Source: Chrysochromulina tobinii
Taxonomy: Eukaryota
NCBI GenBank assembly: GCA_001275005.1
Contig: JWZX01003355.1
Span: 1 to 36,509, forward strand
DNA: 36,509 nt
Reading direction: 5' to 3'
A model generated the notes under the pieces. It did not search any database, was not told the DNA's origin, and was given only the letters and a program-made list of their open reading frames with translations. A program made the position numbers and the translations under genes. Shown piece by piece: positions 3,001 to 36,509 of this stretch; the stretch's first letter is position 1, and every line of letters starts with the position of its first letter.

Positions 3001-6000
3001 CTCGTAGCCAAGCACGGGCTCGAAGCTCAGCAGGTTGGCAACCTGCAGGTGGCTTAATGGAACTTGGGCGCCAGTGGGCGCCTGCAGGCCGGCACGATCA
3101 GTAGGCACGTCGAAGAGGAGAAGCAGCTCGGCGCCTGCCATGCGATTGGTAGGCAGCTGCGCGGGCCGCCGGAAGGCACGGGTGTAGTAGCTGCGGATCA
3201 TGGGGGGGGGGCGGCTGCCGAGGTCGCCGGTGAGGTTACATGCGGTGGTCTGTAGAGCCACGGCGCCCATGTACAACGAGGGCGTGATGTGCGGCCGGCC
3301 GGGGAGACCGGTGACGAAGCGGATCTGGCTGCCCACGACGGGCGTGACGAACCTGATGAGGGAGGCAATCCGATGAGTGATGAGGGAGGCAATCCGATGA
3401 GTGATGAGGGAGGCAATCCGGTTAATATGAGGCCATCAGACGCCATCAGACGCCATCAGACGCCTTCAGATGCCATCAGACGCCATCAGACGCAATCAGA
3501 TTATGAGAGGGCGCGACGAACCCTGTGAGGAGCCAGTGCGTCGAGACGACGCGCGTGGGGCCGGCGGCGATCGCTGCGGGCGGAAGGCTGGGGGCGGCGA
3601 GGCTGGGCAGGCGGGGCGGTGGCGCCGTGAAAGGGGGCGGCATGTGCACGTTCGCGTTGCTGCTCGCATTGTGCGCAGACGTCGTGTAGGTGCCGACGGG
3701 CGCGCAGTGGGCCCAACTGAGCGTGACGTTGCTCGCATTCGACAGAGTTGCGTTGCTTCCGTTGGTCGGACTGGTCGGCAGCAGAATGGGAGTGCATTCG
3801 AGGGATGCATTCGACGTAGTGGTCGCATTGGGGCTCAGCAGGGCGGGGGGGGCGGCGGGGGGGCTGCTCCGCATGGCGCTGCTCTCCCCAAGCGTGCGCA
3901 CGCGGCCGCCTGTGGGGTTGATGATGGTCACGACGAAAGTGAAGTCGTTGACCCACACGCCGCTGTAGTCGGCACCGAGCGGATGCGAAAAGTCGAAGAG
4001 CTCATCGACCAACGGCTTGCCCCCGGACATGGCGCACGGCCAGCTCGGGTTCCCAAATCGGGACATGCATACCTCGGCGGCGGGGCGCGCGCGCTCGTCG
4101 AAGGTGATGCTGAGCGTATCTCCCGCGCTGAGCTGCATGTCGCCATTGTCCGGATCGGCAGCGACGAAGGAGACGATGCGTGGCAGAGGGCCGCTCGACA
4201 AGGTCGCGACCGTACGAGACGGCGGCGCGTTGAGCAGCGGGCTCTGCACGTCGCCTTGGACGGCCACCGTCATGCCCAGCTGCACGGGCCACGGGGGCGA
4301 CGCGATGCTCGTAGCGAGCACCTCGAGCGTCGACGAGTCCGTCCAGACGGCGCGCAACTCGTCCCCGACGCGTGAGGGCAGCGCGGGATTGCGAACGTCC
4401 TCTCCCGGCCAGTGGAAGCTGAAGAGCCGATCCAAATATGGGCGAGTGCCCTCATCAAGGGCGCGATTGGTCGCCACGTCGAACTCGATCTCGAAGCGAT
4501 CTCCGACGCCGTAGGACAGGTCGCCCTCATCGGGGTCGGAGGCCTCGAACCGCACGATGCGCGGCGCCGTGCTCGATCCGAAGGAGCCCGTGAGCACCGC
4601 CGAGTCCCCACAGGGCGGTGAGGTGCGCGCCGCGTTGGTGATGTCTCCACACATGCTGGACGTGAACGTCGGGCAGCGCTTCGCGGAGAAGGTGGTGGTG
4701 CCGTCGAGACGAATGCCGTTATTGGACGAGACGTCAGAGACGGTGATCACAAACGTCGAGCTGTCGGCCCACGTGCCGCTGTACGAGTTGCCCAGCTGGC
4801 CCGAGACGGAGAAGAGGGCGTTGACAAAGGCGCGGCCTCCGCTCACGCCCGCGGCCGCATACACGCCGCCCGCGTTCGGATTCGTATAGAGCCCTCCAGC
4901 TTGGTAGTTTCGGTACGTGACGCTGAGCGCGACGTTGAAGGTGATGGTGATGAGATCGCCGTCGCTGTACTCGAGTGCGGAGCTGTCCGGGTCCGAGACG
5001 ACCACCGACACGATCCGCGGCATGTCGAACGAGCCAAAGGTGCCGATCAGCGGCAGCACAGTCGAGGTAGAAGCGGCGGCCGAGGTGCTGCCCGCATTGC
5101 GCACGCGCACCGCGTCGCGCAGTCGGACGGTCGTCGAGCCGTCGAGCACAGGGAGGAGCCCCACCGTCGTGATCGTCACGTCGGTCGTGACAGGCGGCAC
5201 GTAGAGGAAGCGCGCGAACTCGCACTCGCGAGCGGACTCGCCGCGCGTCCGGTCGCAGAGGGTGTTGGGCGTGTCGAACATGTACTCGGCTCGAAGCTTG
5301 TCTGCGTCGAAGCCGTCCCACCAATAGGTACTAGAGGAGGCGGGCTCTAAGGAGGTCTGAGGAATGAACTGGTAGATGCCGCGCAGCGAAATTCTCTCTT
5401 GAGGGAAGCCCACAGCCCTGCTCAGGTTGACCACGGGATCTTGCACGAGGCTCGGCAGATTGAGCCACGGCCGTTGGAGCTGTCCGGGCCCAGGCCCCGC
5501 GGTGGCGGCGGAGGGCTCGAAGGCGATGCTCGCGCCGGTCGTGTCGATGAGTGTGATCACAAAGGTCCACTCGTTGAACCAGGCGCCACTATAGTCCGCA
5601 CCCAGATTGAGGGGCTGGTTGGGGCTGAAGCCTGCGAGATACACAGGCCGACGCGCCAAATCGTACTCAATGTAGCCGTTGCCCACGAATTGGAAGAGAG
5701 AGTCGACGTACGCCTTGTTCCCCGACGGGAAGCGAAGCGGTCCGCTCGGATCCGCATCGGGCAGCGGTGCCACGTAGGCCATGCCCGCGCTCGTTGGCCG
5801 GTCGAGGACGATCGAGATCGTGTCGCCGGCAGTGTAGCCAGCGCCGGCGCCCGCGGCGATCAGCTGGATCGTCTGTGGGTTTGGCTGCCAGACGCCTGTC
5901 AGCTGCGCGGGCTGCCAGTTGCGCTGGAGCGTGCATGCCGGCACGGGCAGCTGGTTCGTCTCCCACTTGTCGCCGACGGGTGCGCCTGAGCCGCCCTCGA

Positions 6001-9000
6001 CGGCGCTTGTGGTGCACATGATCGGTCCAGCCTGCGGCGCGTACGCCGAGATGCGCGGCTCACGGTAGTACAAGAACGTCAGCCCCGTCGGTGCGAAGTC
6101 GATGCCGTTGAGCGACACGTACACCATCACGTCGCCCGCAAAGTTCAAGTCCATGGCGGCCGACGGGCACACGATGGTGTTGGACACGTTGTAGCCCAGC
6201 ACGCCCAGGACGGCGGCGCCGGAGAGCGCCAGCGTCGTGTGGGCATGGTCCTCACCCCATCGGCAATAGCGCTGCGCCGCCGCCGAGTCGTCGAATCCGG
6301 TGAGCGTCCCTCGCCAACTCTGAGCCTCCCTCATGACCCAACGTGTGCCGCCCGAGCTTGGGCCTCGCAGCCGCCCTTGGACCAGCACCATGCTGCCGGG
6401 CTGCTCGTAGTAGCGCAGCTCGAGCCTCACTTTGACGAATTGCTGCCCGTTGATGGCCACGCTCAGCTCGTCGATCGGGCTGCTGCCGCGCGGGGGCGTG
6501 CGGCACTCGAGCCGGTTGGCCGCCACCGTCAGGGCTGGGGTCTCTCTGTAGTTGGCGAGCACCTGTGGGGAAGAGGCGAGCTCGTCCCAAGCACCCCAAC
6601 GGCAGCGCGCCGCGCCAGCTGCGGGCGGCTTGTACGTGCCGAGTGCGTCGAGCCCGTTGGCGTAGACGGTGATTAGGGTGCCCCCGCTCGACGGCCCGCC
6701 CCTCGGTGAGAGGCTGAGGACATCGGCGAGCGTCGGGTTCCGGTAGTACGTGAAGTCCAATCCCGTGTCCTCGAAGGGCGCGATGCCGTTCAGGGAGAGG
6801 TACAGACGGACCACGCCCACGACGGTGCGTGGTGTGGTGGTGCACGTGATGCGGCTCGCGTTCAAAAAGGAGGGCGTGACCAGTCCGCTCTCTTCTTCGC
6901 CCCAGCGGCAGCGCACGAGCTCGGGCGTGTCCGAGTTGAACGCGTCGAGGGCCGCGCCCTCTAGGTGGACGACGGTGCCGCCCTGCAGTGGGCCGCCGCG
7001 CACGGAGAGGGAGTAAAAGATGGACGAGATGACGAAACCAATTCGACTCTGCGCGGCGACGGTGGCATCGATGAGGTGCGAGACGGAGCGGAGCGTCCGG
7101 TCGTACAGTGCCGACGAGGCCTCGCCCACCAGGTCAACGAGGGAGCGTGCGAGCAGAAAGGGTGTCGGCAGCCGTCCAGTGTTCACAGGGAGAATCTCCA
7201 CGACGACGCTGATCGCTGTGAAGGCCGTAGAGCTGAGCTGTGAACTGTGAACAGCCGTAGAGCTGAGCTGCCGGCCTCCGCTTTCGGAGGACTCGACGGC
7301 GGCGCTGCCACCACCAGCCCCAGCGAGCTGCAGCCGCCGGCCAGCGGAGCCGCCTCCAGCTGAGGACGACTCACTCACGATGCGCACGACCTGCAGGCGC
7401 GACGCCGTCACGTTGCGTCCGTTCGACTCGACGGCCATCAGCGAAGCGGCGAGGTCCTGCCGAAGCGCCGCCTCGAAGGCCACCCGTGCTTGCGAGCCGG
7501 CGGGCACCTGGTCGATCCCGAGGTTCACGCGGAAGGTGACTCGGCGTGAACGCTGCGGCTCCATCGAGTAGAAGCCAAACGAAAAGGGCGTGGGGTCAAA
7601 GTCGGCGCCATTGAGCGAGACGAGCACGTCGTGGACGGCCGTGTCGGGCTTGGACGGCGTCGCGCACCGAAGCTCGGAGCTGCTCAGGTAGAGAGCGATC
7701 GTATCATCCGTGTCAAGCCCGTCGGTGAAGCGGCAGCGCGCAAACTGCGGCGTGCGTCTGCCTTCGTACTCATGGAAACCCAAGCCGTGGAGCGTGATGA
7801 TCGTGCCGCCGAGCGTCGAGCCGCCGGTCACGGGCGCCATCGTCGTCAGGTTGTACGGCTGCGTGTAGTACGCAAACGGAACGGAGGTTCGAACAAAGTC
7901 GGCACCGTTGAGCGCGAGCACAAACTCGCGGTCCACGTCGGGAAAGTTTGCAAAGGCTCCGCGGTCGAAGGACTCGCAGATGACGGTCGTGTCGCTTAGG
8001 AAGAGGGGGGTGGTCATGTACCTGAGGAGTTGGCACTCATAGGTCATTGGTTGCCATCAAGGAGGCCATCAGGCAGGTCATCAGGGAGGTCATCCGGGAG
8101 GCAATCAGGGAAGCAATAAGAGGCCATCAGAGGCCAGCACAGGCAATCAGACGATGCGTACTGGCCAGAGTAGTCAGAGAGCGCCCTCGACGCTTGCAGC
8201 ACGTCGATGATGAAGACGGAGCCATCGTACCACTCGCCTGAGTAGTCGGGGCCGACGGTCGGCTTCATGAGGAAGAGCGAGTCGACAAAGTCGCGCCCGC
8301 CTGAGTGCGCGCCGCGGTTCGTCCGACCGTTGAACGTGACTGTGAGCGTGTCGCCCACGCCGTAGCTAAAGTCGCCGCCGTCGGGGTCGGACGCTCGGAA
8401 GCTCACGATGCGCGGTGGCTGGAGAGTACCAACGCCCGCGTTCCGAGTCTGCAGGACGGGAGAGGTGGCGGTGGCGGGCGCCGAGGTGCGCCCACGGTTG
8501 CGGATTGGCTGCCCGGCCGTTGGCGATGAGGCGATCGTGGGCGTCACGCGCACATTTTTGAGGGTGACGCCGTCGGTCGTGATGCCCTCGTTGCTCGCGT
8601 CCTGGATAGTGATGACGAAGCTCGAGGCATCCTGCCACTCGCCTGAGAACTGGGCGCCGAGCGGGTGCGTGAACGTGAAGAGCGCGTTCACAAAGGCCTC
8701 ATCGCCGCGCGTAGGGGCGTCGAGGCCGCCCCGATCTGTGAGCCGGTCAAAAGTAGATAAAGAGCGAGTCGCCCTCGCCGAAGACGGTGTCGGCATTGTC
8801 CACGTCCTCCAAGATGAACCCACCTACTGGGAGGATCTTGGGCGCCTCAAGGGAGCCAAACGAGCCCACGAGCAGCGCCTGGCCGGAGGCCGCCTCCGAG
8901 TTGCCCGCCGCGTTGACAATCAGCCCGCCGCGCACATCGCGGAGGGATGCGTGCGTCTGGCCCACGAGGGCGGTGCCGCCCGCCGCGCTCACGATCGTCA

Positions 9001-15000: not shown

Positions 15001-18000
15001 GGTTGGCGACGGTCACGCCGACCGTGGGCGTGAGCTCTGCGGAAGTATTGACGAATTGCTCGAGGATCGTCACCTCGAACACGGTCGAGTTCCGCCACTC
15101 CCCCCAATACGAGCCGCCCAGCTGCACGGAGAAGCCGAAGAGCTCATCGACCGACGCCTTCGCCGCCTCGCGGGTCCACTCGGCCGCCGTCGTGCCGTTG
15201 GCGCCGCAAAAGGAGCATGTGCGGTTCGTGGGTTCGTCAAAGTGGAGGGAGTAGTAGACGGGGCCGGGCACGGACCCAAAGTATTGGCGTGCGCGGCGCG
15301 AGACGAAACTTGAGAGCCGCGGCCGGCGCGCCCGCCCAAAATGGCCCTGCAACACAACGTTCGTCTGGTTGAGAGGCTCGGTCAGGTTCAGCCGCCCGCC
15401 GCCTGCGTCGTAGAAGGAGCGGATGGGCTTGAGCACCGTCACCACCGTCTGGTTGATCAACGGCAGCTCGTACCGCGTCTCCGTCACCGTGATCGTGAAG
15501 ACCGAGTCATCCATCCAGGCTCCCGAGTAGCCGACCCCGGGAGGGATGGAGAAGTCAAACAGCGCCTCGACGCGCTTTTGCTTCGCCTCGACCGCGCCCA
15601 GGTCGGTGGAGCGGTCGAAGGCGATCGTGATCTGGTCACCATCCGAGAAGACATAGTCGACGTCATTGCTGGTGGCCGCGCCGGGGTCGCGCACCTCGAA
15701 GCGCTCGAGCAGCGGTGCGCCCGAGTCGGAGATGCCGCCGAGGGCGGACGACGTGACGGCGACGGGCGAGGTGCCGCCACGGTTCCGCAGCGTGCCCACG
15801 AGGGTGACGTTCGAGCGCTGGCGTGGCTCGCAGCCCGCATGGTTGCAGATGCGCAGCTCGCCCCCGAGGGTGTCGAGAGCGCGCACGCGGAAGGTGCGCG
15901 CGTCGGCCCACTCGCCCGTGTAGTCGGCGCCAATCGGCGGATCAAAGCGGAAGAGCTGGTCGACGAAGGCCTTGCCTCCTTCATACGCGCCCAAATTCGT
16001 CCCATGGTTGAATCGCACCGTGATCAAGTCCCCCACGCCGTACACGGCATCGCCATTGTCATAGTCCTCGGCGGTGACGTTGACAATGTACGGCGTCGTG
16101 GACTCGAAGAGCGGGAAGCGCGATCGCAGCTTGAGCTCGTCGAGCGAGGCAGGCGCCATGCCGGCCGAGGCGCGCGAGCGCGAGGTGCGATCGCGGATCG
16201 CCGCGTGGAGTGCGAGCGTCACCTTCTCTGTTCTCGCCACCGTCGCTGTCATCGCTGAGGAGACAGAGATGGCCTCGATGACGAAGGTGGAGTCGTCCTT
16301 CCACTGGCCCTGGTAGTTCAGCCCCACGGGCATCGAGACGCTGAAGAGCGAGTCGACGTACGCCGAGTTGCCCGCGACGGCGCCGCGCCCTCGGTCGGTC
16401 GCCTGGTCGAAGACGATCGAGATTTGATCTCCGGCGCCAAAGGTGGAGTCGCCGTGGTCCGGATCGTCGACGGAGACGAGCACGATCGAGGGAGTCACTC
16501 CGAACTCGGCGCGGAAGGGCGCGAAGCGATCGTCCTCCGACGCGACGATCGGGCCGACGAACGAGTTCGCGCCGTTGCACTTGCGCGCCGTGCTGAGCCT
16601 GCACCCCTGGTTGCGGACCCGCCCCTGCGTCTTGACGAGAATGGCGCCGAGCTCACTGTTGAGCTGCGAGCCCGTGCCGTCGACGATGCTGATCACGAAG
16701 GTCGAATCGTCCGTCCACTCGCCTTCGTACGCGTCGCCGATCGCGACCGAGAAGTTGAACCAGGTGCTCACCACGGCGGCGGGCACCCGTTTCCCGATGT
16801 CGTATGGGCACACGCCCCAGGGCGCAGCGACGGCGGGCGGGGTGGCCGATTGGCAGCCGAGGTCCGTCGCCCGGTCAAATGTGAGGCGGATCACGTCGCC
16901 GAATGCGACCGTTGCGTCGCCAAAGTCGGGGTCCTCGCCCACGACCGAGACGAGCACCGGCGGCTCGTCGAGGCCGCAATCTCCCGTGAGCACGGCCGAG
17001 ATCTCATTGAGCGGCTCGGAGGTGCCCGCGAGATTTCGGATCACGAGCGCGTCTCGCGGGCGCACCTGATGAGGGAGGCAATCAGAGGTCATCAGAGGCA
17101 ATCAGAGCCCGTCCATCTGGAGCGTCTCGCGGGCGCACCGTGCACGTGTTATTCGGGTGCACGTGCCCGTCAGCCAAAAAGGGCGGGAGCGACCGGTAGG
17201 AGGGCTCGAGGATGGTGATCTGAAAGATGGAGTCGTCGAGCCACTCGCCACTGTACGACTGGCCGAGCTGTGCATTGAACGCGAAGAGCGAGTCGACGTA
17301 CTCGCGGTCGCCCGAGTACCTGCCGAGCATGGTGCTATTGGAGCGATCGGTCGCCATGTCGAACGTGATGCGCAGCTCGTCGCCGGCGCCGTAGGCGAGA
17401 TTGATGTCATTCGGGTCGCTCGCAGAGAACTCGATGATCGTCGGCGTGCCCACGGGGCCAACGCTGCCCGTGATGGGCCAGCGTCGGATGACGGGTGGCG
17501 TGGTCGCGTAGTTGTTGAAGAACGTGAGGTAGTCCTCGCACTGTCGCGTCGTGACGCGCGACCACGAGTGTGGGTAGCGCGGCCCGAGCATGCGGCCGTA
17601 ATTGTCGAGGCCGCTGTTGCCAAATTGGTCAGTGGTCCGCGGCACGCTTGGCGGCGAGGGCTCGCCGTAGGCGCACGCCGACACGGTGACGCCCCCGTAG
17701 CCACACACGAGCATCGGGGCCTGAGAGGCCGAGAAGGACGTGGTGACGAACCAGGAGCCCGAGCGGAAGTTGGGCGGCTCGGCGCGGCTACCGAGCAAGT
17801 TCGAGTCGCACAGCCAGGGCATGGGGAGCGTCGCATTGAGGATCGTGATGACGAGCGTCTGGGGATCCTCCCAGGTGCCGCTGTACTCGGCGCCCAGGCC
17901 ATTGTACTCGGCGTCGATCGGGACCCCGTCGCGCACGCGAGCGCGCTCGCACCCCGGATTGCACGGCGTACAGAATGTGAGGTACTTATCAATGTCCCAT

Positions 18001-21000
18001 TTGGTCGAGACGGGCGGCCTCGCCGTGTCGAGGTTGAAACGGACGACCACCTCGTCGCCCGCGCCGTACACGCCGTCCGCATTGTCTGGGTCGCGAATGG
18101 ACGCAGAGCGCACCTGATGATGGAGGCAATCAGCACAATCAGCATGCAGTCTGCCGACGGCCGTGGAGAGCATGGGTCGCCAACGGACGCGGAGCGCACC
18201 ATCGGGCCCGCGTAGCAGTGCTGCATCGCAAAGTCTCCCCATGGGCTACCCGAGGTCGCCGAGGCCAATGGGCTGTTGGAGGCGGCCTTGAGGCCGGCGC
18301 TCTGCTTGACGGAGACACGGAGCCGGAACCCCTGCCCCTGTGGGATGTTGTACGTCTGGGCGGCGCCCGTGGTGCCGCCCATAGCGCGCTGGTGCGGGCA
18401 TGAGATCAGGACGTTATTCGCATCCCTCCGGCCGCATTGCGTCGCGTCGGGCATCTGCTCGCTCGGGATCGTAGCATTGAACTCGAGCGGCTCGATGACG
18501 AGCGTCATCGCGTCCGTCCAATTGGCGCGAAGGCGCGAGCCGAGGGTCCACTCGTCGGCCGTTACACTAATGGACTGGGCGATGAACGTCGCGCGGAACT
18601 CAAAGATCTCAAACAGGCGCGCCGCGTTGAGCGCCCCCTCCTCGTGCCCCAGCCGATTCGTCGGACGGTCAAACGTGAGCACGAGCTGATCGTGCACACT
18701 CCACGAGCCCGAACCGTCCATGTCGCCCACGTACGCATCGAGCAGCAGCGGCGCCGAGTGATCGCCAAAGTCGCAGAAGGGCTGCCCTTCGCACAAGCGA
18801 GGGTTCACATTCGTGCCAAACCGGCGGCCGATGAACGGGGGCGAGGCCGACTCGAGGCGGGAGGGCGTGTACGGGCCCAGCAGGTCCCACCTGTCATCAG
18901 GGGAGGTCATCACGGGAGGTCATCACGGGCGGTCATCAGGGGAGGTCATCAGGGGAGGACATCAGAGGTCATCAGAGGTCATTAAGGGATTCATCAGGTA
19001 ATCAGGGGAGGTCATCAGGGGAGGTCATATCAGGTAATCAGGTACCGATTGCGGAATCGCGCCTCCCGGCTCGGCGTGACGCGCATCGTGCCCAGCTGGG
19101 ACTGCGTGAGCGCGGCTGGGTTGACGCCCGGGCTACCGTCGAGGATTGTGATCACCACGCGCTCAGGTTCGTTCCACGCGCCGCTGTAATCCAGCCCGAG
19201 GCCGCAGCTGAAGTCGAAGTACCGGTCCACCCATCGTTTATCGCCCTGGAAGGCGGGTAGCAACCCACGATCGGTCGGCATCGAGAAGCGCAGCTCGAAC
19301 GAGTCGAAGGCGTCGTACACCGTATCGGCGTAGTCGACGTCGCGCACCACGAAAGCGGCGATCCGTGGTGCGCCCGCCTCCCCGAAGGAGCCACGGAGCG
19401 GCGGTGAGGTCGTGTTGCTCAGATCGGAGATGCCACCTCGGAAGCGGATCGGGCGCTGTGTGCCAGCGGCGTGACGCGCCTGCACGACCGTATCGCCGAG
19501 GGCGAGCCCAGAACCGAGCGGATCGAGCAGCGTCACTACAAATGTTGACTCGTCCGCCCAGGCACCCGAGTAGCCGTTGGGCGCGCCGCTCAGCGCGACG
19601 GCGCTCGACTGGTTCAGCCAGGCAGCCGGCGACTGGGAGGGCACAAAGTCGGCATCCTCGGGGCAGCTGCCCACGGGCCGATAGTAGAGCTCAGCTCCAG
19701 CCGGGCCAGCACGTATGAAGCTCTGGTGCGTCACGAGGCCGGCGAGGCCGAACGCTGCGAGCTCAACGCTCGTAAAGGTCAGCTGCTGCGCCCGGAGCCT
19801 CGCCGCCAGCCCCGCGTTGATGAGTTCCATCCCCCCACTTGGACGAAATGGCCCCGCGTCGAACCAGGCCAAGCCGAGCGTCGAGCTGCGACAGAAGCGG
19901 AAGAGTGAGTCCACATACGCGTGGTCACCCGAGGTGGCGCCGCCACCCACGCCGCTCGCCCACGGCTGCGGCGGCGAGACGCCAAGATCGGTCGGACGAT
20001 CGAAGGTGATGGTGAGCGTATCTCCCGCGTCGAGACCGGGGGCGGAGTTATCCTCGTCGGCCGCGACGAAATCGACGAGGCGCGGCGGCGGTCGCCGGCC
20101 GCGGTCGCCCGTCAGCCGGTTCGAGCTGCGCGCGGAGGCCCCGGAGCTCGAGCGCAGGTGGATCGCGGGCGCCGCAAACGTGGCGCCCGAGACGGCGCGC
20201 CCGCCCCGCGTGTCATGGAGCGTGATGACGAAGCACGGATGAAGGGTGGTAGTGCCGCCGTCGGCGCAGTCATCGGACTCGCCGTCGCGCCACGCGCCGG
20301 TGTAATTCGCCGCAATCACGGCGGAGAAGCCGAAGAGATGGTCAACGTACGCCTTGCCTCCCGAGCTCATCTCCGAGCCGCCGCCCCGGTTCGTCGCCAT
20401 GTCAAAGTGGAGCACCATCGTGTCGCCGTCGGTGTAATTCGTCGCGTTCGCGGCGACGACGACGGTGAAGCGCGTGATGGCGGGTTCGCTAAAGACCCCA
20501 GCGTCGCCGGTGATGGTGACGGTCTGGTTGTTCGCGTCCAGCAGGTCACTCGCCGCGTTCTTGATCTGATCCGTGGTGACGGTGACCGTACTCGTCCCCG
20601 GAGCGAGCGCACCGCCCGACGGGTTGATGATGGTGATGATGTAACGGCTGGGCGTGGCCCAGACACCCGAGTACTCGACCCCGAGAGGACGACTGAACGC
20701 AAAGAGCGCATCGACGGCCGCGCGGGACGAGTTGGCGCCCGGGACGACGATGGTCGGCGTGTTCGTCGGGATGTCGAACTGGAGGATGAGGACGTCGCCG
20801 ACGCCGTACACGTCATCCCCATTGTCCACGTCGTCGAGCGTCGCGGAGAGCAGTCTGGGGAAGGTCGGCACGCCGAGGTCGCCCGTGAGCATGGGCGAGG
20901 TGGTGTTGGCGTAATGGAGCGTGCAATCATGCAAGCTCGAGTTGACAATGGACGGGTTCGTGAGCAAGTTGACATAGTCGTCGGGCCAGCCTCGCTCGAG

Positions 21001-24000
21001 GTCCATCAGGTTGGAGCATGTCTTGGCCGTGTAGTTGAGATTGGTGATGCCGCCGGAGGGGCGCGCCGTCACATTGAGCTCGCCAACGCGCGGTGGGAAG
21101 ATCTGCGACCCTTCCGCGTCGACGATGGTGACCACGAACGTCGAATCGTCCTTCCATTCGCCCGTGTAGTCGGCACCGAGCGGGTGCGAGAACTCGAACA
21201 GAGCGTCGACGAGCGCCTTGCCGCTCAGCGAGCTGCTGCCCAGCGGGTAGGGGACCACCTCGGGCGGGCCGCCCTTGACACCCGCGCCGTTGGCCGGATA
21301 CACGAGCGTCGACGGCTGCTGGTAGTTGCTGTGCGTCACGCCCCGGTTCGTCTGCTGGTCGAAGACGATGGTGAGCACGTCGCCGGACGAGAAGACGGCG
21401 TCTCCATTATTCGGATCGTCGGCGACGAAGCGGATGATCCGCGGCCCGTCGCCCGCCCTTCCAAAGTCGCCTTCCAAACGAGGCAAGCTTGCGAGCGCCG
21501 GCGTGCCATCAGTGAGCATCGTGCTCGCGTCCAGCCGCGCTGCGGAGCCGCTGAGGGTGGGCGCGAGGCAGTAGGGGGTGCCTCGGAACTCTGCCGGGCA
21601 CGAGAGAGACTGCACGCGCACATCGCGACGGAGTGCGACGCGCGTGCCAGAGTCCGCAAAGGCGGTGCCGTAAGGCCTGTAGCTGGGGGCGAGGATCCCT
21701 GGCTGCGGCGCGGCCGAGCCGTTGATGACCGTGACGAGGAAGGTGGAGTCATCGAGCCAGCCGGTCGAGTACTCGTGGAAGAGAGGCTGCACGATGCGAC
21801 TGCCCGACGCGTCGAAAAAGTCGAAGAGACGCGCGAGCTGGGTGTTGAAGAAGCCGTTGCCCGAGCACTGCGACGAGAAGTCACAGTTGAGGACTCCCGA
21901 GTACTCCGCGAAGGCGTTGGCGGCGCGGTCGGTGGGCACATCGAAGCGAAGCGCGATCGTGTCCCCTGCTCCGGGGATGAGGTCGCGGTTGACGAAATCG
22001 GACGCGATCACCTCCACGAGCCGTGGCGGTGTGGGAAAGGTCTCGACGCGCTCGGCGACACCGAGGAGCGCCGCCTCCATGACGAGCAGCGGCGCCGTCT
22101 GCGCCAGGTTCGTCATGTTCGCCTCACGCGCAATCCGTAGCATCGTGTCATACGGCCGCGGCGCGTACTCCGGATCGGGATACGGCTCCGTCACGGTCAC
22201 CACGAACGTCGAGCCGTCGGACCAAGCGCCGCTGTACTGGGCGCCCAGCGGGGCCGAGACGCTGATGAGCGAGTCAACATACTCCTTGCCGCCCGATCCG
22301 CGCTGTGCACAGAAGGGCAGGTTGTTCACAGAGAGGGCCTGCTGCAGGCATCGGCCAGGGAGCACCGCGCGGTCGAATTGCAGCACGAGCTCATCGAAGG
22401 CATCGTAGCTCGCGTTCGCGTTGTCGCGGTCATGTATGAAGAAGCGTAGCAGGGAGGGCGCCGTCTCGTTCGCGCCAAAATCGCCCACGCTCAGCCGGTA
22501 CGATGCACTCGAGAACTCGGACGTGCGCGGCGCGTTCTGCAGCCGGCCGGCGACGGTGACGAGGGCGCCCGAGGAGCCACCCACGCGTGGACCAGTGCCT
22601 GCACCGGTAGGATCGAGGATGGTGACGACAAAGGTGGAAGTGTCGAGCCACGCGCCGCTGTAGTCGGCTCCGAGTGGCTCGGAGAAGGCGAGCGTCGTGT
22701 CCACGAACGCCCTGCCGCCCTCGCGCCTGCCCAAGTCTGTGGGGAGGTCGAACTGGATGGCGAGCGTGTCGTTGCGCGACCACAACGGGTCCTTGAGGTC
22801 CCACGTCTGCGAGTCGTACCGGATGATCGAGGGGGGGGTCATCGTGCCGGGATTGCCCGTCAGCGCCGAAGTGGCGCGGCACCAGCGCGAGCGCTCGTTC
22901 GCGGTCTTGATGTCGCCGGCGACCGAGACTGTGACGGCGCCCAAGACGGCGCCCGGGCTGGACGGCATCGTGTGGCCACTCACGTCGACCATGGTGATGA
23001 GGAAGGTGAGCGGGTCGAGCCAGCGACCGTTATAGCGCGCACCGAGCGACTCGCTGAAGCGGAAGAGCCGATCGACCAGATCGCGATCTCCCGCCTCGGT
23101 TGCGAGCTCGTCGTACCTGATGAGGGAGGCACTCAGAGGTCATTCGAGGCACCCAGAGGTCATTCGAGGCACTCAGAGGCAGTCACGCCAGCTTCTTGTC
23201 GTCGTACCCCTCGACCCTCGAGATAGCGCGATTCGTTTCCGAGTCGAACGTGATCGTGAGTGTGTCGCCGTCCGAGAAGACGACGTCGCGATTGTCAGGG
23301 TCCGCGAGTACCGCAGACAAGATCTTAGGCGCGACCACCCCGGCCTCACCCGTCATCGAGAGGAAGCCCGCGGAGATGGGCGAGGTGCGCGGCGTGTTGC
23401 GAAGGTCTCCTGCAATAGTGAGGGTGGAAGTGAAGCCGCCGCCCCACAAGCAGCGTGCGACCTGCGGCATCGAGGGGAGCTCGGTCAATCCAGATCCCAT
23501 CCAGATCAATCCAGATCCCATCAAGATCAAGGGCAAATCGAGGATAGTCAAGGTCAATCAAAGGGACTCACCTGCGTCATCTCCTGTTGAGAGAGGGGCT
23601 GCGACTCCGACACAAACGCAGCCAAGCCCCTGCCCGTGAGCGTGACACGTGTCCCCCCGCGCTTGGGCCCCGCCTCGGGCGTGATGCCGGAGAAGACGGT
23701 CGGCTGCACGTAGTACGTGTAATCGAGGCCGGTGTCGATGTACACGGCGTCGTCGCTCGAGAGCAGCAGATGCACGTCGCCACTCTGACCGACGGGCGGC
23801 GTGGCGCAGAGGAGCCGCTCCCTGCTCACCTGTGGGGATATGGCGATGGCGCCGTGGTGAGCACTTGCATGCAGGCGTGGCGCAGAGGAGCCGCTCCCTG
23901 CTCACCTGCAGCACCGGCATCACCACCTCGCGCGAGCTGCCGAAGCGGCAGAAGGCGATAGGGCCCGCATCGAAACCAAAGCCGCGGAAGGTGACGAGGG

Positions 24001-27000
24001 TTCCTCCGGTGGTCACACCCCCGGGCGGCCCGCCGTTCACAGTCACCTGGTCGATTCGCAGGCCGTAGTAGCGGAATCGGTACGTCGTGTCCACGTACTG
24101 CTGGGCGTTGAGCGTCACGAGCACGAACGCGGCCTCGGCCTCAGCGATCGCCGTCTGATCATTGCCATATTTGGGTATGGTTGCCATATTTGGGCGAGCG
24201 GCACACGTTCAGTGAGGATCAGAGGCACTCAGGGGCCATCAGAGGGCATCGGAGGCACTCAGAGGGCATATGAGGCCATCAGAGGGCATCGGAGGCCATC
24301 AGAGGGCATCAGAGGGCATCAGAGGGCATCAGAGGGCATCAGAGGGCATCGGAGGGCATCGGAGGGCAGCACGCACCTGATTGGGCGAGCGGCACGTCCA
24401 CCGCTCAGGTAGCAGCTCGATCGGCGGTGTGTCGGCGATGTTATTCGACGTGACGAAGCGGCAGCTCGCAAACTCGGTGTTGCCCCCGAGCCCGTGGAAG
24501 CCCTGCCCAAAGATGCTCATGATGTAATCAGAGGTAATCAGAGAGGTAATCAGAGGTAATCAGAGGACTCACCTGACCAAAGATGGTCATGATGTAATCA
24601 GAGGTAATCAGAGGTAATCAGAGGTAATCAGAGGACTCACCTGCCCAAAGATGGTCATGATGTAATCAGAGGTAATCAGAGAGGTAATCAGAGGTAATCA
24701 GAGGACTCACCTGCCCAAAGATGGTCACCACCGTGCCGCCCGAGAAGACGCCTGCCTGCGGCAGCACCGACTGCACCGAAGGCGGGTTGTAGTACGTGTA
24801 GTTCTGACCCGTCCAGCGCGGATCGCGCCCCGACTCGAGGGCGAAGCCGTTGAGGGCGAGCCAGAGCTGACGCGTATCGGTCAACTTCGTGGGTGGGCTC
24901 TCGCACACGGCGGCATGCCCGCCGCCGAGCGCCGTGGCGCGCGTGATCGTGTAGCGAGGGTTGTACGCGGCGTTCGTCGGCTCGCCGTACTGGCACGAGA
25001 GGTACGCGCCGCGATCGAGCGCGTCGAATCCAGTGCCGACGAGGGTGACGAGGGTACCGCCTGTCCGATGACCGCCCGAAGGGATGATGCGCGCTACGTA
25101 CGGGTTGTCATAGTATTGGAAGTTGAGGCCCGTCGCACCAAAGTCGATGGCGTTGAGCGAGAGGGTGAGGTTGACCGTCTCGGCAGCCCCGATGCGTGCT
25201 GGCGGCGCGAGGCACACGATGCGCCGATTCGAAAGCTCGAGGGGCTGCGACTCAGGCGGCGGCAGGCTGAGGGTCTGTGCCAGGCTCGCGGCCAGCATGT
25301 CCACGATCGGGGCCTGCCAACGGCAGCGCACGAGGCTCGACGAGAATGCAAGGAAGCCCGAGCCCACGATCGTGACTGCCGTGCCCCCTCCCTTGGGACC
25401 ACCCACGGGGGACAGCCGGACGAAATCCTCGTTGGATGAAACCCCGGCGCCACTCCCCTTGGGGCGGGGCTGCTGATAGTACTCGAACGTGAAGCCGGCG
25501 ATCGGCTCGAAGTCGGTCTGCGCGCCATTGAAGGAGAGGGCGATGCTCACGACGGCGGGCTGTGCCGCCGGCGGCGTCGTGCACACGATCATATGGCGCT
25601 CGAGGACCTCGGCTGCCACGAAGTTGACGAGCCCAAACCGACACAACGCGTTCCGCGGGTCGGTCGAGAAGACGTCAAACGGACCTCCTAGGATGGTGAC
25701 CGAGGTGCCTCCGCGCGTCGGACCGCCTGTCGGCTCGCTTGCCGTGTAGTTCGTCGGCTGCTCATAGTACAAGAAGGAGACGTTGAGCGCGTACAAGTCG
25801 ATCGCGTTGAGTGCGAGCGACATGTTGCGCCGAGCCGTCGTCGACTGGGGGAACGAGGCGACGACGATGCGATTGGGCGTGAGCACGCTCGGTGTCGTCA
25901 GGTTCGTCAATGACGTGTCGCCCCACCCGACGCGCACGTCACTCACGTTGATGGAGGCGTACGCTTTGAAGCCACTCCCGCCCAGAGTAACGACGGTGCC
26001 GCCGTCGACCCGCCCGCCCGTTGGGTGGATGGACGTCACCGTGAACGGCTGCACGAAGTACGTGAAGTTCAGCGCCGTGTCGGGCGTCACGGCCACATAG
26101 TCGCGGTCGTTGAGCGCGATCTCAAGGCCCACGACGGTGGCTTGCGTGAACGGCTGAGCGGCTGTCCTGCACCAGAGCTGCGTGTCGTCCAGGTACTGCG
26201 GGATGGTCACCTCCGTCCCATCCCATCGGCATCGCGCGTTCCCCGCCTGCGCGCCCCCCAGTCAACGGCCGCATGCAATTAGAGTGATCATCAGCGGTCA
26301 TCAGTGGTCATCAGTGGCCATCAGCGGCCATCCGAGCTCATCCGCGCTCATCAGCGCCACTCACCTGCGCGCCCCACCGGGCGAATGCCGCGAGGCCCTC
26401 GCCATGGATCGTGATCACCGAGCCGCCGAGGGTGGGGCCCGCCGTCACGGGGGTCAGATGCGTGAGGCGCGTCGGCTGCACGAAGTAGGCATACTCGAGG
26501 CCGTTGGTGTGGTAGTCTTGGCCGTTGAGGGCGATCTCCATGTCGGTCACCACCGGCGACGAACGCACCGGCGAGCGGCACACGACGCGCATGGGCGTGA
26601 GCACCGTCGGTGTCTGGAAGCTCACCAGAGGCGTCACGGCGTCCTCCGCCTCGGTCACATTGGTAGACAGGCAGGGGCGCAGCTCGACATTCGAAGTGCT
26701 CAGAGGCGCCGAGCCGTCGAGGTAGGGAGGTGCACTGCCCAGCCGACGCAGGCGCGTCTGCCCCGGACGGATGGAGATGCGCAGCCCCGAGCCTGATGAC
26801 GGGAGCCATCAGATAGGATCAGAGGCCATCAGAGGCCCTCCGAGGCCCTCCGAGGCCATCAGAGGCCATCAGAGGCCATCAGAGGCACTCAGAGGCCATC
26901 AGAGGCCATCAGAGGCCATCAGAGGCACTCGGAGGCACTCGGAGGCCATCAGAGGCCATCAGAGGCACTCGGAGGCACTCAGAGGTGACGAACCGCCTTG

Positions 27001-28495: not shown

Positions 28496-28832
28496 GGTGG
28501 GGCCTCGGTGAGCGCTCCGCTTTGCTTGGAAAAGGCACAAATAAGCGTTGAAGTGGGCGGTCAAAGTTTGCAGAGTGCGGGGTGCTTTGGTAGCATGTGG
28601 TAGCCGGCGGCCCGGTGACTCGTACTGAATTCTTTGACACTACTGTACGATTTCCCTGAAGAAAGTAAGAGCCGAGCCGTGTGGAACAATTGAAATGTCC
28701 ACGTACTCGTGTACTGTTGTACATTGTGTCTTGGAACTTACCCCGGAATTTGCCGGTTGCAACACGGACACAGTTTCGTCAGAAGCGCCGCGTCAAGCAC
28801 ATCGAGGTCCTGTGCGACCTCCGAGAAAGCTC
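28496..28832. promoter_or_regulatory. Short head-to-head intergenic region, probable bidirectional promoter
   Basis: 337 bp, visibly more AT-rich than the flanking coding DNA, between two divergent ATGs (28495 minus, 28833 plus). No specific element identified. Confidence 0.45.
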
Positions 28833-31085
<2,253 letters not shown>

Positions 31086-31530
31086 GCACGCGTTGGAGCA
31101 CGAGGAGAGCGAGAGAGATTTGTAACCGACCAAGCTACCCTACCAATTGGCGGGACAGCCATACTCTCACGAGGAGAGCGAGCGCTCTACCGCTCCTTGA
31201 TTGCTTACCGCTGAAGACAACGACCTATCTAACGCCATCGCCGCAGCGTTCCAGAAAGAAGAAACAGCCGTGCGTGTATCTATAGATAACGAGTGGAGGT
31301 GCCGGGGCGCAGGGGGCGAGCGTTCTCATGCGATGCAGATAGAGTTGCAGATTCCGCTTGCCGATGCGTCGCGTGTTGGACGGGAAGTTCGATGCTACTG
31401 TATACAACAAAGCGTCACTTAATCTAAGACACACCCGGGTCCGGGGGCCGCGGCCGGGCCGGCCACGACGGTTGTCAGGCGCGGGGCGTCTCGAGACCGG
31501 GTTGCACTAGAGTGCTAGAGTGCTGACACG

Positions 31531-34500
31531 TCACCGAAAGCCTAACCCCAACCGCGTGCCTGGCAGCTGCGGGGACTCGTTCCTGGGCGGCGGCGAGTTC
31601 CGAGCGTTCTGCTGGTTGAGCTGGTCCCACGCGTTGACCGGGATCTCCTTGGCCGTGGCATAGCGAATGTGCATTGTGGTGGCGCCGAGCCCGACGGCGC
31701 GCGCCGCGCGCATCTCGACTGTCTGGACTTCGTGCCAGTTCGCCTTCCGCGCGGACGGGTGATGGACCTCCGGCTGCACGCGAGCGCTGTACTGACCGGG
31801 CCCCTTGACAGGGGTCCCATTGGGTAGGATGTAATGCGGCTCCGAGCGCGCGCTACTCGAGGGCGGCGGGTGCGGCGCCGCGTCTCGCAGCCCTACCGGT
31901 AGGCTCGACGCGAAGGCGCCGTCGCGAGCGCTCGCGCTGCCGCCGCCTTTGGCTGTACGCCGGTGACGCGGCGAGCTGCCCCCGAGGATGGCGGCCGCCG
32001 CGGCGCCATCGGAGGGCGCGTGGGGGGGCATGCCCGCAATCTCCGCCTCGGGAGATCCGCGTCCGGAGTGGCGGCTCGACGGGAGCGGCGGGAGCGCTGC
32101 ATCGGGCGCGCCGTGCGCCGCATAGGCTGCCGAGGGCGGATGGGCCGTCGCCGCCGGCGCCTGCTGCCGCTGCTGGTGCTGCTGGTGCTGCTGGTGCTGC
32201 TGGTGCTGCTGGTGCTGGTACTGGTGCTTCTGCCCGGGTGGCGAGGCCGATCGAGGGCGCACTAAGGCTGCCTTATATAGGAGGCCAGCGAGGGTGCCCT
32301 CGCGCTTCCCCTCGAGCTTCGCGGCCGCGTCAGAGCGCACCCCGGCCTGCGCTGCCAGGTGCACCCGCAGCAGGTGGAGCGAAGCGAGGGCGGACTGCAC
32401 CAAATGAGAGCGCTCAGCGGCGGCCGCCACTTGCGTGCCCTCGAGCTTCTCCGTCACGTGCTGTAAGTTCAGCTCGATGCGCTGAAAGTCCGCTTTGCGC
32501 GCCTTGAGCTCCTTGAGCATGTCTTGCCGTCGAGCCTCGAGGCGTGCCTCGTTCGCCCTCGCGCTCTTAAGAGAGTTCTCGGATTCCTGTGCCTTGCCGT
32601 GCGCCGAGCGCACCTCCGCCACCGAGGCCGCCACGACTGCCTTGTAACGGTCGAGGAGGATGCGTAACCGATCGGCGACGGGCGCATTCGGCGGCTCGAG
32701 CAGCGTATGGATGCTCATCAGCCAATCGGGCAGCGGCTCGCCGGAGCGGCCCGTGTAGTACCTGATGAGGGAGGCAATCAGAGGTCATCAGAGGTCATCA
32801 GCCAATCGGGCAGCGGCTCGCCGGAGCGGCCCGTGTAGTACCAGCTATCCGAATGAGGCACGATCGCGGCGCCTTTGCTCGCCGTCTCGCCGGCGCGTTG
32901 GCGCAGCTCGAGCAGCTCCTCAATCGCCTCGCGCACGACGCCGTGGACGTCGTCGAGGTGCTGTGTGGAGCGCACCGCCTTCGAAACGGCCTCACCGAGC
33001 TGCGCCCCGAGGCGCTCGGCAGCCGCGACCGCCTGCGCCGCCCTCTCTCGATACCGCCGCTCCTCCTTGAGCTCATCGTCGGCGTCGTCGAGCGTGTGGC
33101 ACAGCGCAATCTGCGCCACCTGACGTGCGGCGAGGTAGCCCTTGAGCTTGGCGACCTCGCTCGCATGCACCTCCTTGAGCATCGCGAGATCGGCGAGATG
33201 GCGCTGGCTCGAGCGCCGCCATCCGCCGCCGCATGCGCGTCCTCGATCGTGCGAAGGGTCGCGCGCGTCGCCTCGTGCGCCGCCGCCTCCTGTGCCGTCG
33301 CCGCTGCCGCCGCCGCCGCCGCCGCGTGAGCAGCCTCGAGCTCGAGCTGGAGCGTCGCGACCTGCGCCCCGTGCGCGCTGATCTGCGCGCTGACCTGCGC
33401 ATGTAGCGCTTCCAGCTCGGCCGTGTGGTCCACCGGTGGCGGCTTGGCGCGCTCCGCCTCGAGCTCGTCGCTCACCTGATGAGGGAGGCACTCGATCTAA
33501 TTAGGGATGCAATCAAAGGCAAACAAAGGCCATCAAATGGCCTCGAGCTCGTCGCTCACCTGGCGCAATCTCGCCTCGAGCTCCGAGATATGGAGCTCAA
33601 GCGCACGCTGGCCCGCCGCGCCCTGCTCGAGCGCTGTGCGCTGCTCCTCCACGAGCGCCTCGAGCTCGCGCAGCCGCGCCGCCGCCGCCTCGCGCCTCGC
33701 CACCTCTTCCGGATCCTCCTCCCGCACCTGTGGGGAGGAGAGGGCGCCGTGGTGAGTACATGCATGCTGGGAGAGGGAGACACGGATCCTCCTCCCGCAC
33801 CGTTTCCACAACGAGCGGCGCGTCGAGCGAGGGGTCCTCGGGCGGCTCGGGTGGTTCGACGACGCCCTCGAGCTCCTGTGAGCCGCGCAGCCGGCGCGCG
33901 AGCCGGCGCAACTCCCACCGCAGCTCCTTGGCCACCCGTTGCGTCGCCGCGTCCACGTCCGCGATCACCTGTGGGGAAGGGTGAGGCGCCATGGTGAGCA
34001 CTTGCATGGCACCAGCCGCAGTAGGGATCGTCCACGATCACCTCGGAGCGAAGAATCAAGTGCACTCAAGTGCAATCAAGTGCAATCAAGTGCAATCAAG
34101 TGCAATCAAGTGCAATCACCTCGGAGCGGAGCTGTCGCGTCGCCTCCTCCGCGGCGGCCGAACGCTCAGCGAGTGCGATCGCCTCGGCCTCCTTGGTGCC
34201 CAAGCGCGCGAGCGCCTCGTCGAGCTGGGCGCGCACCTGTGGGGAAGGCGAGGCGCCGTGGTGAGCACATGCATGCTGGCCGAGGCGCCGCGCGTCGAGC
34301 TGGGCGCGCACGGCGTCGGTCTCGGCACGCAGATTCGCGGCCGTCGCCATCGCCTCGAGCGCCTCGATCTCGTGCTGCGCCGCCAGCGCGGCAGACGCCT
34401 TCTCCGCCGCCGCCGCCGCGGACGCTGCCTTGGCGAGCTCGTCCTTGAGGACTTTCTCGCGCTGCTCGGCCTTGACGGCGCGCTCCTTCTGCAGCTCGAA

Positions 34501-35309: not shown

Positions 35310-35603
35310 CTGCGTTTACGCGGTCGGGGGTGCGTATGCGCAGAAACTTGTGTATACGCGAGGGGGTACGTATACGCACCCGCTGTGTATACGTACTACC
35401 GCTCGCGTAAACGCACCTAGCCGCGTATACGCACCCGGGTGCGTGTACGCACCCGCTGCGTAAATGCACCCAGCGCTCGCGTATACACACCCACCCGCGT
35501 AAAACGCACCCACACCCGCGTACAAGCACGTGTGCGTAAACGCGGCGTCGGATGCGTATACGCACCTACCTGCGTATACGCACCCGACGCTGCGTTTACG
35601 CGG
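35310..35603. repeat. Palindrome-rich repeat tract (GCGTATACGCACCC units), possibly MITE-like
   Basis: Many GCGTATACGC/GCGTAAACGC units in both orientations; CTGCGTTTACGCGG direct repeat at both ends; imperfect ~20-bp inverted termini just inside it. Confidence 0.55.
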
Positions 35604-36509
35604 GGACGCAACGAACGTCATGCAGCTCTAACACAAATCCACTCCGGTCCTTCACCGCGTCTCGCACCGCTTCTTTCCCTGCATCTTCCATGCTGTTGTA
35701 CTTGAGGTTGAGCTTGGTCAGGACCGCGTTGACCTTGAGCACCTCTGCAATCGCCTTGGCACCGTCATCCCTGATGGAGTTGGTACCGAGGTTGAGGGTG
35801 GTCAACACCGCGTTGACCTTCAGCGCCTCCGCGATCGCCTTGGCACCGTCGTCGCCGATGGAGTTGTTGATTAAGTTCAGGTTGGTCAGGACCGCGTTGA
35901 CCTTCAGCGCCTCCGAGATCGCGATGGCTCCCTCGCCCCCGATGTAGTTGCCTCCAAGGGCGAGGGTGGTCACCACCGCATTGACCTTCAGCGCCTCTGC
36001 GATCGCCTTGGCACCGTCGTCGCGGATGAGGTTTGTAGGGAGGACCAGACTGATCAGGACTGCCATGAAATGCAGGTCAGACCCGATGAGGATGGCGTCG
36101 GCGGATTGGAGCTTCTGGCCATGCAAATTGGCCTTCGTCTGGTCGCGCGTCATGCCCGAGAGCATGATGCCCTTCTCCATACCGATTTTGGCAAGCATCG
36201 TGGCCGACTCCACGTCGAGGCCGTTCTTGAGCAAGTTGCAGCTTTTGAGCGCCGAGCTGAACTTGAGCAGATCAGAGAGGACGAGGGCGCCGGAGACCCC
36301 AACGCCTCTCAGGTCCAGCTTTGTCAGCGCGTCCGCGCGTAGCTTCTTGATTGGGATCTCCGAGAAGACCTCGAGAGATGCGCTGCTGAGGACTGCTGTC
36401 GCGAGTTGCTGCGCCCCCTCTCCGTCGATGTTGTTGTTGGCAACGGAGAGATTTTCAAGCACCGGGCTGAGCTGCATCAGCTCGGCCAGCACAATGCCCT
36501 CGGTCGCCC
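35596..36509 (-). CDS. Ribonuclease-inhibitor-type (NLRC3-like) leucine-rich repeat protein, 5'-partial
   Basis: 28-aa (84-bp) repeats N.I.DDGAKAIAEALKVNAVLT.LNL; the frame stays open beyond the window edge. Confidence 0.88.
   Translation of the reverse strand, partial: ATEGIVLAELMQLSPVLENLSVANNNIDGEGAQQLATAVLSSASLEVFSEIPIKKLRADALTKLDLRGVGVSGALVLSDLLKFSSALKSCNLLKNGLDVESATMLAKIGMEKGIMLSGMTRDQTKANLHGQKLQSADAILIGSDLHFMAVLISLVLPTNLIRDDGAKAIAEALKVNAVVTTLALGGNYIGGEGAIAISEALKVNAVLTNLNLINNSIGDDGAKAIAEALKVNAVLTTLNLGTNSIRDDGAKAIAEVLKVNAVLTKLNLKYNSMEDAGKEAVRDAVKDRSGFVLELHDVRCVPA

Follow-up and report, generated by a model that had tools for sequence, protein, structure and literature searches.

How does a genome come to hold introns that end in almost the same letters, each opening with a duplicate of the next exon's first bases? 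The question is raised by contig JWZX01003355.1 of Chrysochromulina tobinii, whose 36,509 nucleotides (nt) form the window analysed here, and by a set of its introns that we call type A, in which a copy of the start of the downstream exon (D) is followed by an insert (E) that closes with a shared cassette. A reading of the window from its letters alone, hereafter the sequence-only reading, had reported near-identical intron ends at 3353, 17066, 18114, 23117, 32762 and 33476, and had attributed them to a process that creates introns. Our answer, held with somewhat more than even confidence, is that a type-A intron would arise when a short cassette is copied into an exon (A)G|GTRMG site and the copying doubles a stretch of target sequence whose length varies.

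Type-A introns in the window

When up to three mismatches are allowed, the 19-mer TGATTGCCTCCCTCATCAG matches the window nine times, always on the minus strand, and not once in 100 dinucleotide shuffles. Six of these matches are intron ends, two are internal tandem copies (3377 and 3401) and one is a degenerate copy (33497). The intron ends, counted at the acceptor G, lie at the six positions named above with 0-2 mismatches to the 19-mer, and the repeats that the sequence-only reading had seen ahead of the cassette were found again as runs of CTCTGATGAC-like or CCTCTGATGA-like 10-mers between D and the shared end. All six of these strict type-A introns open with a D, and it is D that supplies the GT donor:

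3353..3521, minus strand: type-A intron of 169 nt; D of 12 nt with one mismatch, six GTCTGATGGC units and three 24-nt cassette units (3353-3420).
17066..17138, minus strand: type-A intron of 73 nt; D of 17 nt, identical in both copies; E of 56 nt with the exact cassette.
18114..18199, minus strand: type-A intron of 86 nt; D of 27 nt with three mismatches, an older copy; cassette TGATTGCCTCCATCATCAG.
23117..23207, minus strand: type-A intron of 91 nt; D of 9 nt (GTACGACGA); E of 82 nt with GAGTG-type units and a GAGTG cassette.
32762..32841, minus strand: minimal type-A intron of 80 nt; D1 at 32841-32795 (47 nt, begins GT), E at 32794-32762 (33 nt) and the exon copy D2 at 32761-32715.
33476..33559, minus strand: type-A intron of 84 nt; D of 20 nt, identical in both copies; cassette CGAGTGCCTCCCTCATCAG and a degenerate second copy at 33497-33515; the frame is open only if the intron is removed.

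The intron at 32841-32762 had been put forward as the minimal case, and it does consist of exactly 47 nt of exon copy and 33 nt of cassette sequence. Its E is made of two CCTCTGATGA units and the cassette, its two D copies are identical, the CTGATGA of the exon at the end of D overlaps the first repeat unit, and the reading frame is open on removal and closed when the intron is left unspliced. The constant part of the cassette, about 20 nt, we take to be a compact 3' intron half, with a CTGAT branch point predicted by the yUnAy rule (A at -17), a pyrimidine-rich stretch and CAG. The sequence-only reading had also held that the motif is more specific than a general acceptor consensus, and the other introns bear this out: of about 21 that can be placed in the window, six are strict type A and five are type-A variants, and the remaining ten have type-B ends (five, with a second cassette), a mirror-image build (three) or other ends (two).

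In a frame test with 240-nt flanks, removal of the intron gave a single open frame for 6/6 type-A introns, and retention closed the frame in five of the six. At 3353, frame arithmetic places the intron start at 3521, and the long open reading frames (ORFs) on either side join in frame only on removal of 3521-3353. Contigs from RNA runs show the removal directly in two cases. For the 17066 intron, a joint skipping 73 nt (17048 to 17122, cut +17; 17049-17121) is present in all three RNA runs and in none of the contigs of DNA run X1. For the 18114 intron, position 18105 is followed directly by 18192 in RNA contigs X15 record 13 and X16 record 19, a skip exactly at GT..AG, and DNA contig X1 record 2 runs unbroken through 17758-18982, spanning the intron. 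At 23117, RNA contig X13 record 10 stops at 23107; the 9 nt by which it overshoots the AG are the D ambiguity, and the 261 nt of this record that are unlisted fit an exon at 23199-23459; this record arithmetic points to splicing of the 23117 intron. No RNA joint is listed for the introns at 3353, 32762 and 33476, where coverage is thin or swamped by repeats, and the lake metagenome run X21 provides short pieces only, with no intron-spanning joint.

Taken together, the RNA joints at 17066 and 18114, the six reading frames and the contiguity of a prolyl-tRNA synthetase (ProRS) gene across variant units, described below, show that type-A elements are removed as spliceosomal introns without change to the coding sequence. 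One DNA contig of run X12 carries a 2-base insertion (GC) at 17132, within the intronic exon copy of the 17066 intron, and this is allelic variation in a copy that is free to drift.

The same contigs bear on whether the architecture could be an assembly artefact, with repeats mis-joined in a short-read metagenome assembly. Logan contigs from DNA runs do break at the cassette, and many of the joints there are repeat noise. However, the units are shorter than a read, the 18114 intron is spanned by a DNA contig and skipped by RNA contigs exactly at GT..AG, and the architecture recurs in at least 143 loci from several assemblies, so that we give this explanation next to no credence.

Cassette copies in metagenome loci and their possible origin

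Metagenome contigs were scanned with GAKTGCCTCCCTCATCAG, which yielded at least 143 loci. The 223 cassette copies correspond to 213 unique contexts, of which 193 have enough flanking sequence; de-duplication left 190, and 145 of these are the last cassette of their array (terminal cassettes). These counts, and those that follow in this section, refer to the loci listed, and the conservation of the cassette and the constancy of its 3' end in this set are partly a product of how the search pattern was built. Exon copies were scored without gaps, anchored after CAG and sought 25-320 nt upstream, with a score of at least 9 required. An upstream exon copy accompanies 79 of the 145 terminal cassettes, compared with 2.1% of shuffled partners, which is the outcome of the check that the sequence-only reading had proposed, of type-A ends against 5' exon duplications. 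When distinct contexts are counted, 78/143 have a copy, and D begins with GT in 53, with GC in 17 and with other bases in 8; even among the 65 contexts that lack a copy, 46 begin with GT. Gapped alignment of the 66 terminal cassettes lacking an ungapped copy rescues 14, roughly another tenth, versus 5% in controls. At four loci (L080, L104, L078 and L108) the intronic copy begins with GT and the exon copy with GC, a mismatch that would fit GC donors turned into GT after insertion, or the reverse change in the exon.

Only 28 locus pairs, among the at least 143 loci, are alike outside the repeats. Among 141 cases, the coding sense downstream of the cassette was sense in 85 and antisense in 20, with 36 left unclear, as judged by a model that was trained on the window and whose calibration is optimistic. 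DNA contigs often diverge at the cassette, and the summed contig depth over cassette bins is 50-100 times that of their neighbours, a figure to be read as "many copies" only and not as a copy number. Viral contigs contained no match to the cassette. Type A is a multi-copy family, dispersed at unrelated gene positions.

The anatomy of these introns was measured in a clean set of 55 out of 84 cases, the other 29 being tandem, array-laden or without a GT or GC start. In this set D measures 9-59 nt (median 21) and the insert 16-190 nt (median 59), and the intron as a whole has a median length of 82 nt, with quartiles of 74 and 93.5 and a minimum of 50. The lengths of D and insert are anticorrelated (Spearman -0.59), and the spread of their total is 29.8, compared with 35.4 after permutation (p<0.001). 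Position -1 is G in 48/55 cases and positions -2/-1 are AG in 26/55; with a D that starts G-T-(G/A)-(C/A)-G, the sites resemble ordinary donor sites. The two copies of D are identical in 22/55 pairs, and 57 mismatches were counted in 1375 nt overall. Introns with identical copies have a median length of 75.5 nt versus 86 nt for those with diverged ones (p=0.0014), D divergence is correlated with insert length (rho 0.35), and the anticorrelation of D and insert is already present in the young class (rho -0.62). This suggests a birth size near 75 nt, followed by growth through array slippage.

The arrays themselves are made or remade locally. GAGTG units lie upstream of 6/9 GAGTG cassettes, compared with 18/136 GATTG cassettes, and one locus that was sampled twice differs by two 20-nt units. 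Whole units of D and insert are iterated as well, as two 88-nt units in locus L014, as a double unit in ProRS and as arrays of 69- and 70-nt units in the window. The direct-repeat arrangement D-insert-D should also permit precise loss of the intron.

These changes in place, and the tandem iteration of copy and insert, could be taken as signs that the introns are old, that a strong lineage-specific acceptor consensus was spread among them by gene conversion, and that the exon copies are secondary products of slippage; the 66 of 145 ends that lack a copy point the same way. Slippage, however, cannot put a foreign cassette into the middle of an exon, as seen at 32841-32762 or 17138-17066. A consensus would not keep exact 19-mers, other introns of the same genes end differently, and 22 of the 55 D pairs are still identical. 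We consider an old origin of this kind improbable. Formation of the intron by tandem duplication of exon sequence, as in the AGGT model, where both splice sites and the whole intron derive from the duplicated exon, was rejected, since the acceptor half of type A is a foreign shared cassette.

More can be read from the junction between D and the insert. The repeat motif [CT]TGA[TG]N lies across this boundary in 14/80 cases, where 5.4 would be expected and 500 shuffles never gave more than 10, whereas extrapolation of the 10-nt period gave a weak excess of microhomology (14/80 with at least 2 nt, versus 8% expected). Examples are the exon ..GGCTGATGA|GC at 32841-32762, the ProRS junction ..CCCG|TCTGATCGG and ..CATCTG|CTC in L014. 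In 21/55 clean inserts more than 10 nt precede the first repeat motif, and those of these starts that do not resemble the repeat are not common to other copies. A donor search with this unique sequence against the at least 143 loci and the window (about 140 kb) returned matches to the repeat motif only and was uninformative.

Junctions of this kind are also what would be left if no dedicated element existed. A nascent DNA end could switch, by CTGAT-like microhomology, into the 10-mer array of an existing intron, copy to the end of that intron plus a few bases (CAG|GTRMG), and return, again by microhomology, to a GTRMG upstream of its point of departure, after which a stretch of the exon would be copied a second time; the event would be of the type of fork stalling and template switching or microhomology-mediated break-induced replication (FoSTeS/MMBIR), or of the polymerase-theta type. 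Template switching would account for the microhomology between D and insert (at 32841-32762, at the ProRS exon ..CCCGTCTGATCGG, and in L014 and L028), for the variable length of D and for the 21/55 inserts whose first stretch is not shared between copies, and it would derive types A and B and the mirror-image introns from one symmetric process. However, the junction motif is found in only 14/80 cases, the end of the cassette is very uniform, and a mechanism with thousands of possible donors should often leave bases of the donor exon after the CAG, of which none were noticed. We regard template switching as rather unlikely, though it is the rival to be taken most seriously.

The minimal cassette is framed by an inverted repeat of 5-7 nt, CTGAT(GA)...(TC)ATCAG, and the one hairpin that stays constant, in 2/5 intron folds, is made by this repeat. 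Its 5' copy belongs to the many repeat units and marks no fixed terminus. The RNA folds of five introns are no more stable than those of shuffled sequences (z -1.9 to +1.6), and Rfam gave no match in the window at gathering thresholds; the idea of a hammerhead ribozyme, suggested by CUGAUGA, was rejected for want of such a match. The bracketing repeat could instead be read as the short terminal inverted repeats (CTGAT..ATCAG) of a cut-and-paste introner of the miniature inverted-repeat transposable element (MITE) type, with a target-site duplication (TSD) made by a transposase, and most published introners are of the MITE kind as far as the available parts of two surveys go (PMC9860276, PMC12130899). 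Yet the 5' end of the insert is not constant, the folds as a whole are no better than shuffles, and the duplication spans 9-59 nt (median 21), compared with the fixed 3-9 nt given in the accessible portion of PMC9860276. An element of this type is very hard to credit.

In the explanation that we favour, the copying of a cassette into a proto-splice site, the exon copy would be a target-site duplication. That some insertion took place and duplicated its target seems likely; that the step resembled target-primed reverse transcription (TPRT) is a more tentative suggestion, which could easily be wrong. In LINE and SINE (long and short interspersed nuclear element) copies made by this route, the 3' end is constant, the 5' end is truncated to a variable extent, the TSD varies in length and the 5' junction shows microhomology. 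Type A has these features of non-LTR (long terminal repeat) retroposons and SINEs: a variable TSD, a constant 3' end, 5' truncation and microhomology at the 5' junction. The shared 3' end, ragged 5' end, variable duplication and microhomology at the upstream junction are the grounds for favouring a TPRT-like route, and they disfavour a transposase with a fixed stagger, whose footprint would not include a ragged 5' end and a variable duplication.

The process may be pictured as follows. A nick at the G|GT site would prime target-primed synthesis, probably on an RNA template. The insert would keep its constant 3' end and be truncated at its 5' end, with the upstream join made by microhomology; truncation and such a join would explain why the length of the duplication varies. 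The cassette would supply the CAG acceptor, the predicted branch point and the pyrimidine tract, and the exon copy the GT or GC donor. Selection for splicing would then keep only sense insertions that have a usable donor at the start of D and a total length of about 50-75 nt or more, and later slippage would lengthen the arrays and iterate whole units of copy and insert.

Several points weigh against this account. No ungapped copy accompanies 66/145 type-A ends. No empty allele was seen: none of the DNA contigs of X1 skips an intron, and there is none among the rows listed for X12 and X21. Neither poly(A) nor any other recognised retroposon tail is present beyond ..CATCAG, and to account for the mirror-image introns one would have to assume either another element or a symmetric process. 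Selection for splicing could by itself produce both the GT start of D and the bias towards sense insertions. It could likewise yield the cluster near 75 nt and the type-B tandem at 27607-27470, which duplicates the start of an intron, so that none of these features is evidence of targeting. Of the intron-creating process proposed by the sequence-only reading, the co-occurrence of type-A ends with exon copies stands as observed, while creation as such is read from the footprint, no empty site having been seen.

Other cassette introns and the genes of the window

The window also holds introns whose ends depart from the strict cassette or whose build differs from that of type A:

26793..26994, minus strand: GC-AG intron with a variant type-A acceptor (CTGATGGCTCCCGTCATCAG) and a long 10-mer array; no exon copy is recognisable.
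30002..30160, plus strand: two tandem units of D and E within ProRS, with ends at 30074 and 30160 and the variant cassette ..CTGATGAGCCCTAATTGCCTCCTCAG.
30821..30950, plus strand: ProRS intron with the variant end CTGATGGCTACCCTAATCAG; no clear exon copy; placed by sequence and reading frame only.
8022..8161, minus strand: intron with 10-12-mer CTGATGR arrays and the looser variant end ATGAGTGCCAACTCCTCAG; only 4 nt (GTAC) are repeated.
23830..23905, minus strand: type-B intron of 76 nt; D of 32 nt and the cassette ..GTGCTCACCACGGCGCC..CCCCACAG.
33728-33800, minus strand: type-B intron; D of 18 nt.
34237-34311, minus strand: type-B intron; D of 19 nt.
27470-27607, minus strand: type-B tandem of two 69-nt units; the stretch it duplicates is not exonic but the opening 31 nt of an existing 427-nt intron.
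30252-30337, plus strand: type-B intron in the ProRS region.
29724..29844, plus strand: mirror-image ProRS intron; insert GTGGCTGTGA with CCTCTGATGA units, and a 27-nt copy of the end of the upstream exon that forms the CAG acceptor.
26247-26365, minus strand: mirror-image intron of the same build as 29724-29844.
24502-24727, minus strand: mirror-image 70-nt units of the same build as 29724-29844.

The sequence-only reading had counted variants of the type-A end at 26793, 30074/30160 and 30950. The variants are real, but those at 30074, 30160 and 30950 lie on the plus strand and in another gene, that for ProRS. Use of the 26793 acceptor is suggested by record arithmetic, as the 611 nt that RNA contig X16 record 21 carries between 26245 and 27606 are the summed length of exons 27178-26995 and 26792-26366. 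At the 8022 intron, RNA contig X14 record 13 runs 4 nt beyond the AG and stops at 8017. The exons that flank 30002-30160 map to residues 208-258 and 260-289 of the Thermus ProRS 1h4q_A, with a split Trp codon between them; this contiguity and the split codon mean that both units must be removed and exactly one D kept. Removal of the variant units restores a gap-free alignment of ProRS to solved structures. The first D of 30002-30160 begins with GT and the other two copies with GG, a difference that looks like a donor gained or strengthened once the duplication had taken place.

Type B is a second cassette (..CACCACGGCGCC..CCCCACAG, and also ..GTGCTCACCACGGCGCC..CCCCACAG and ..GCATGCAWGTGCTCACCACGGCGCC..CCCCACAG) that comes with an exon-copy build like that of type A. 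The notion of two families made by one process gains from this, inasmuch as the type-B introns at 34311-34237, 33800-33728 and 23905-23830 share the build. For the 23830 intron, a joint skipping 76 nt (23797 to 23874) is found in 3/3 RNA runs and in no contig of DNA run X1. In the mirror-image introns, or type C, it is the insert that carries the donor (GTGAGT.. or GTGGCT..) together with CTGATGR 10-mers, whereas the CAG acceptor comes with a copy of the upstream exon's final 11-27 nt. ProRS is contiguous on 1h4q_A across the example at 29724-29844 (residue 206, a split Gly codon, residue 208).

As to the genes, the window has a G+C content of 66% and contains a giant minus-strand gene with IPT/TIG domains (about 1 to 28,600), the plus-strand ProRS gene (about 29,000-31,100) and a further minus-strand gene (about 31,500-34,400) whose translation looks coiled-coil-like by eye only. 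The ProRS gene is antisense to its neighbours, and at least four of its introns are of cassette type A, B or mirror. The closest named relative of a ProRS exon is a Prymnesium parvum transcript (84% identity), with cryptophytes as the next named group (79%); judged by these sequence matches, the ProRS relatives support placing the genome as that of a haptophyte near Prymnesiales.

Further repeats are a perfect 20-mer in 9.3 copies at 27204-27389, within the 427-nt intron, an imperfect, intergenic 18-mer array of about 12 copies at 35369-35601, and 84/168-nt tandem repeats at 35704-36028 (minus strand) in an ORF at the window end, leucine-rich-repeat-like by eye. DNA run X12 is one base short at 8753, where two long reading frames overlap, and either an assembly indel or an allele may lie behind this. 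At many single bases the RNA and DNA contigs differ from the window (1-5500), which suggests a second haplotype or strain.

Comparison with known systems

Compared with LINEs and SINEs, type A has no poly(A) or known tail, and its inserts measure only 16-190 nt. New introns of Daphnia pulex, formed at staggered double-strand breaks, have exon-derived repeats of 4-12 bp, and internal repeats are common in them when young; the available part of that paper describes no insert family common to the new introns, whereas at least 143 type-A loci share a cassette (PMC4202315).

The nearest parallels are introners. In Symbiodinium and in classes 4/5 of Polarella glacialis, as described in the accessible part of the preprint, the element's end forms the 3' splice site, with the first bases of the TSD (GHNN) forming the 5' site (bioRxiv 10.1101/2020.10.14.339549). 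Like type A, these introners are multi-copy, bring the 3' site with them and borrow the 5' site from the TSD, and their introns, too, are reported there in one orientation only. The Polarella TSD, however, is given as fixed at 4 nt (classes 6/8/10: 8 nt), and inverted repeats are present in the elements (bioRxiv 10.1101/2020.10.14.339549), whereas type A combines a variable duplication of 9-59 nt, a ragged 5' end of 10-mer arrays and a constant part of about 20 nt.

A survey of 3,325 genomes reports, in its consulted sections, introner TSDs of 3-9 bp (PMC9860276). For haptophytes, the part of the 2025 introner catalogue at hand gives Emiliania huxleyi families of 45, 6 and 5 copies and a Pavlovales strain; the haptophyte families are small (4-69 copies), Chrysochromulina tobinii has 0 families, and Prymnesium figures only as a BLAST subject in the 12/14 supplementary files searched (PMC12130899). 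The catalogued introners share with type A the concept of a transposon-like intron maker whose splice site is co-opted from a TSD, theirs being 3-9 bp in the material available. The 5-copy E. huxleyi family is labelled "co-opt 5' carry 3'" with "10bp terminal direct repeats" (PMC12130899), and type A can be set beside it by description only, not by sequence. A literature search listed no paper on haptophyte introners by title or abstract, none that dealt at once with Prymnesium, introns and target-site duplication, and none in which, for haptophytes, a shared cassette goes together with exon duplications that are long and variable, bioRxiv supplements lying outside its scope.

The origin of new spliceosomal introns is a long-standing question, to which introners are the best-documented answer, and most of those that can be classified are DNA transposons with short fixed duplications. 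A constant part of about 20 nt together with long variable duplications points to different copying machinery. A bolder proposal, which we think decidedly doubtful, is a new intron-multiplying route in Prymnesiales haptophytes, in which a bare 3' splice-site module, some 20 nt long and perhaps with the 3' ends of excised intron RNA as its template, would be copied into proto-splice sites by target-primed, microhomology-joined synthesis. If true, a genomic footprint would for the first time be at hand for intron propagation that is RNA-mediated, transposase-free and genome-wide in scale, and through the 9-59-nt duplications recombination could take the intron out again. From each young intron one can read where it was inserted, how much of the target was duplicated and, through the divergence of D, how old it is, so that with these readable footprints the rates at which introns are gained, grow and are lost can be measured directly within one lineage, and a birth size near 75 nt bears on what sets the minimal length of an intron. 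Set beside the known systems, type A is an introner-like family, and what is new here is the long duplication of variable length.

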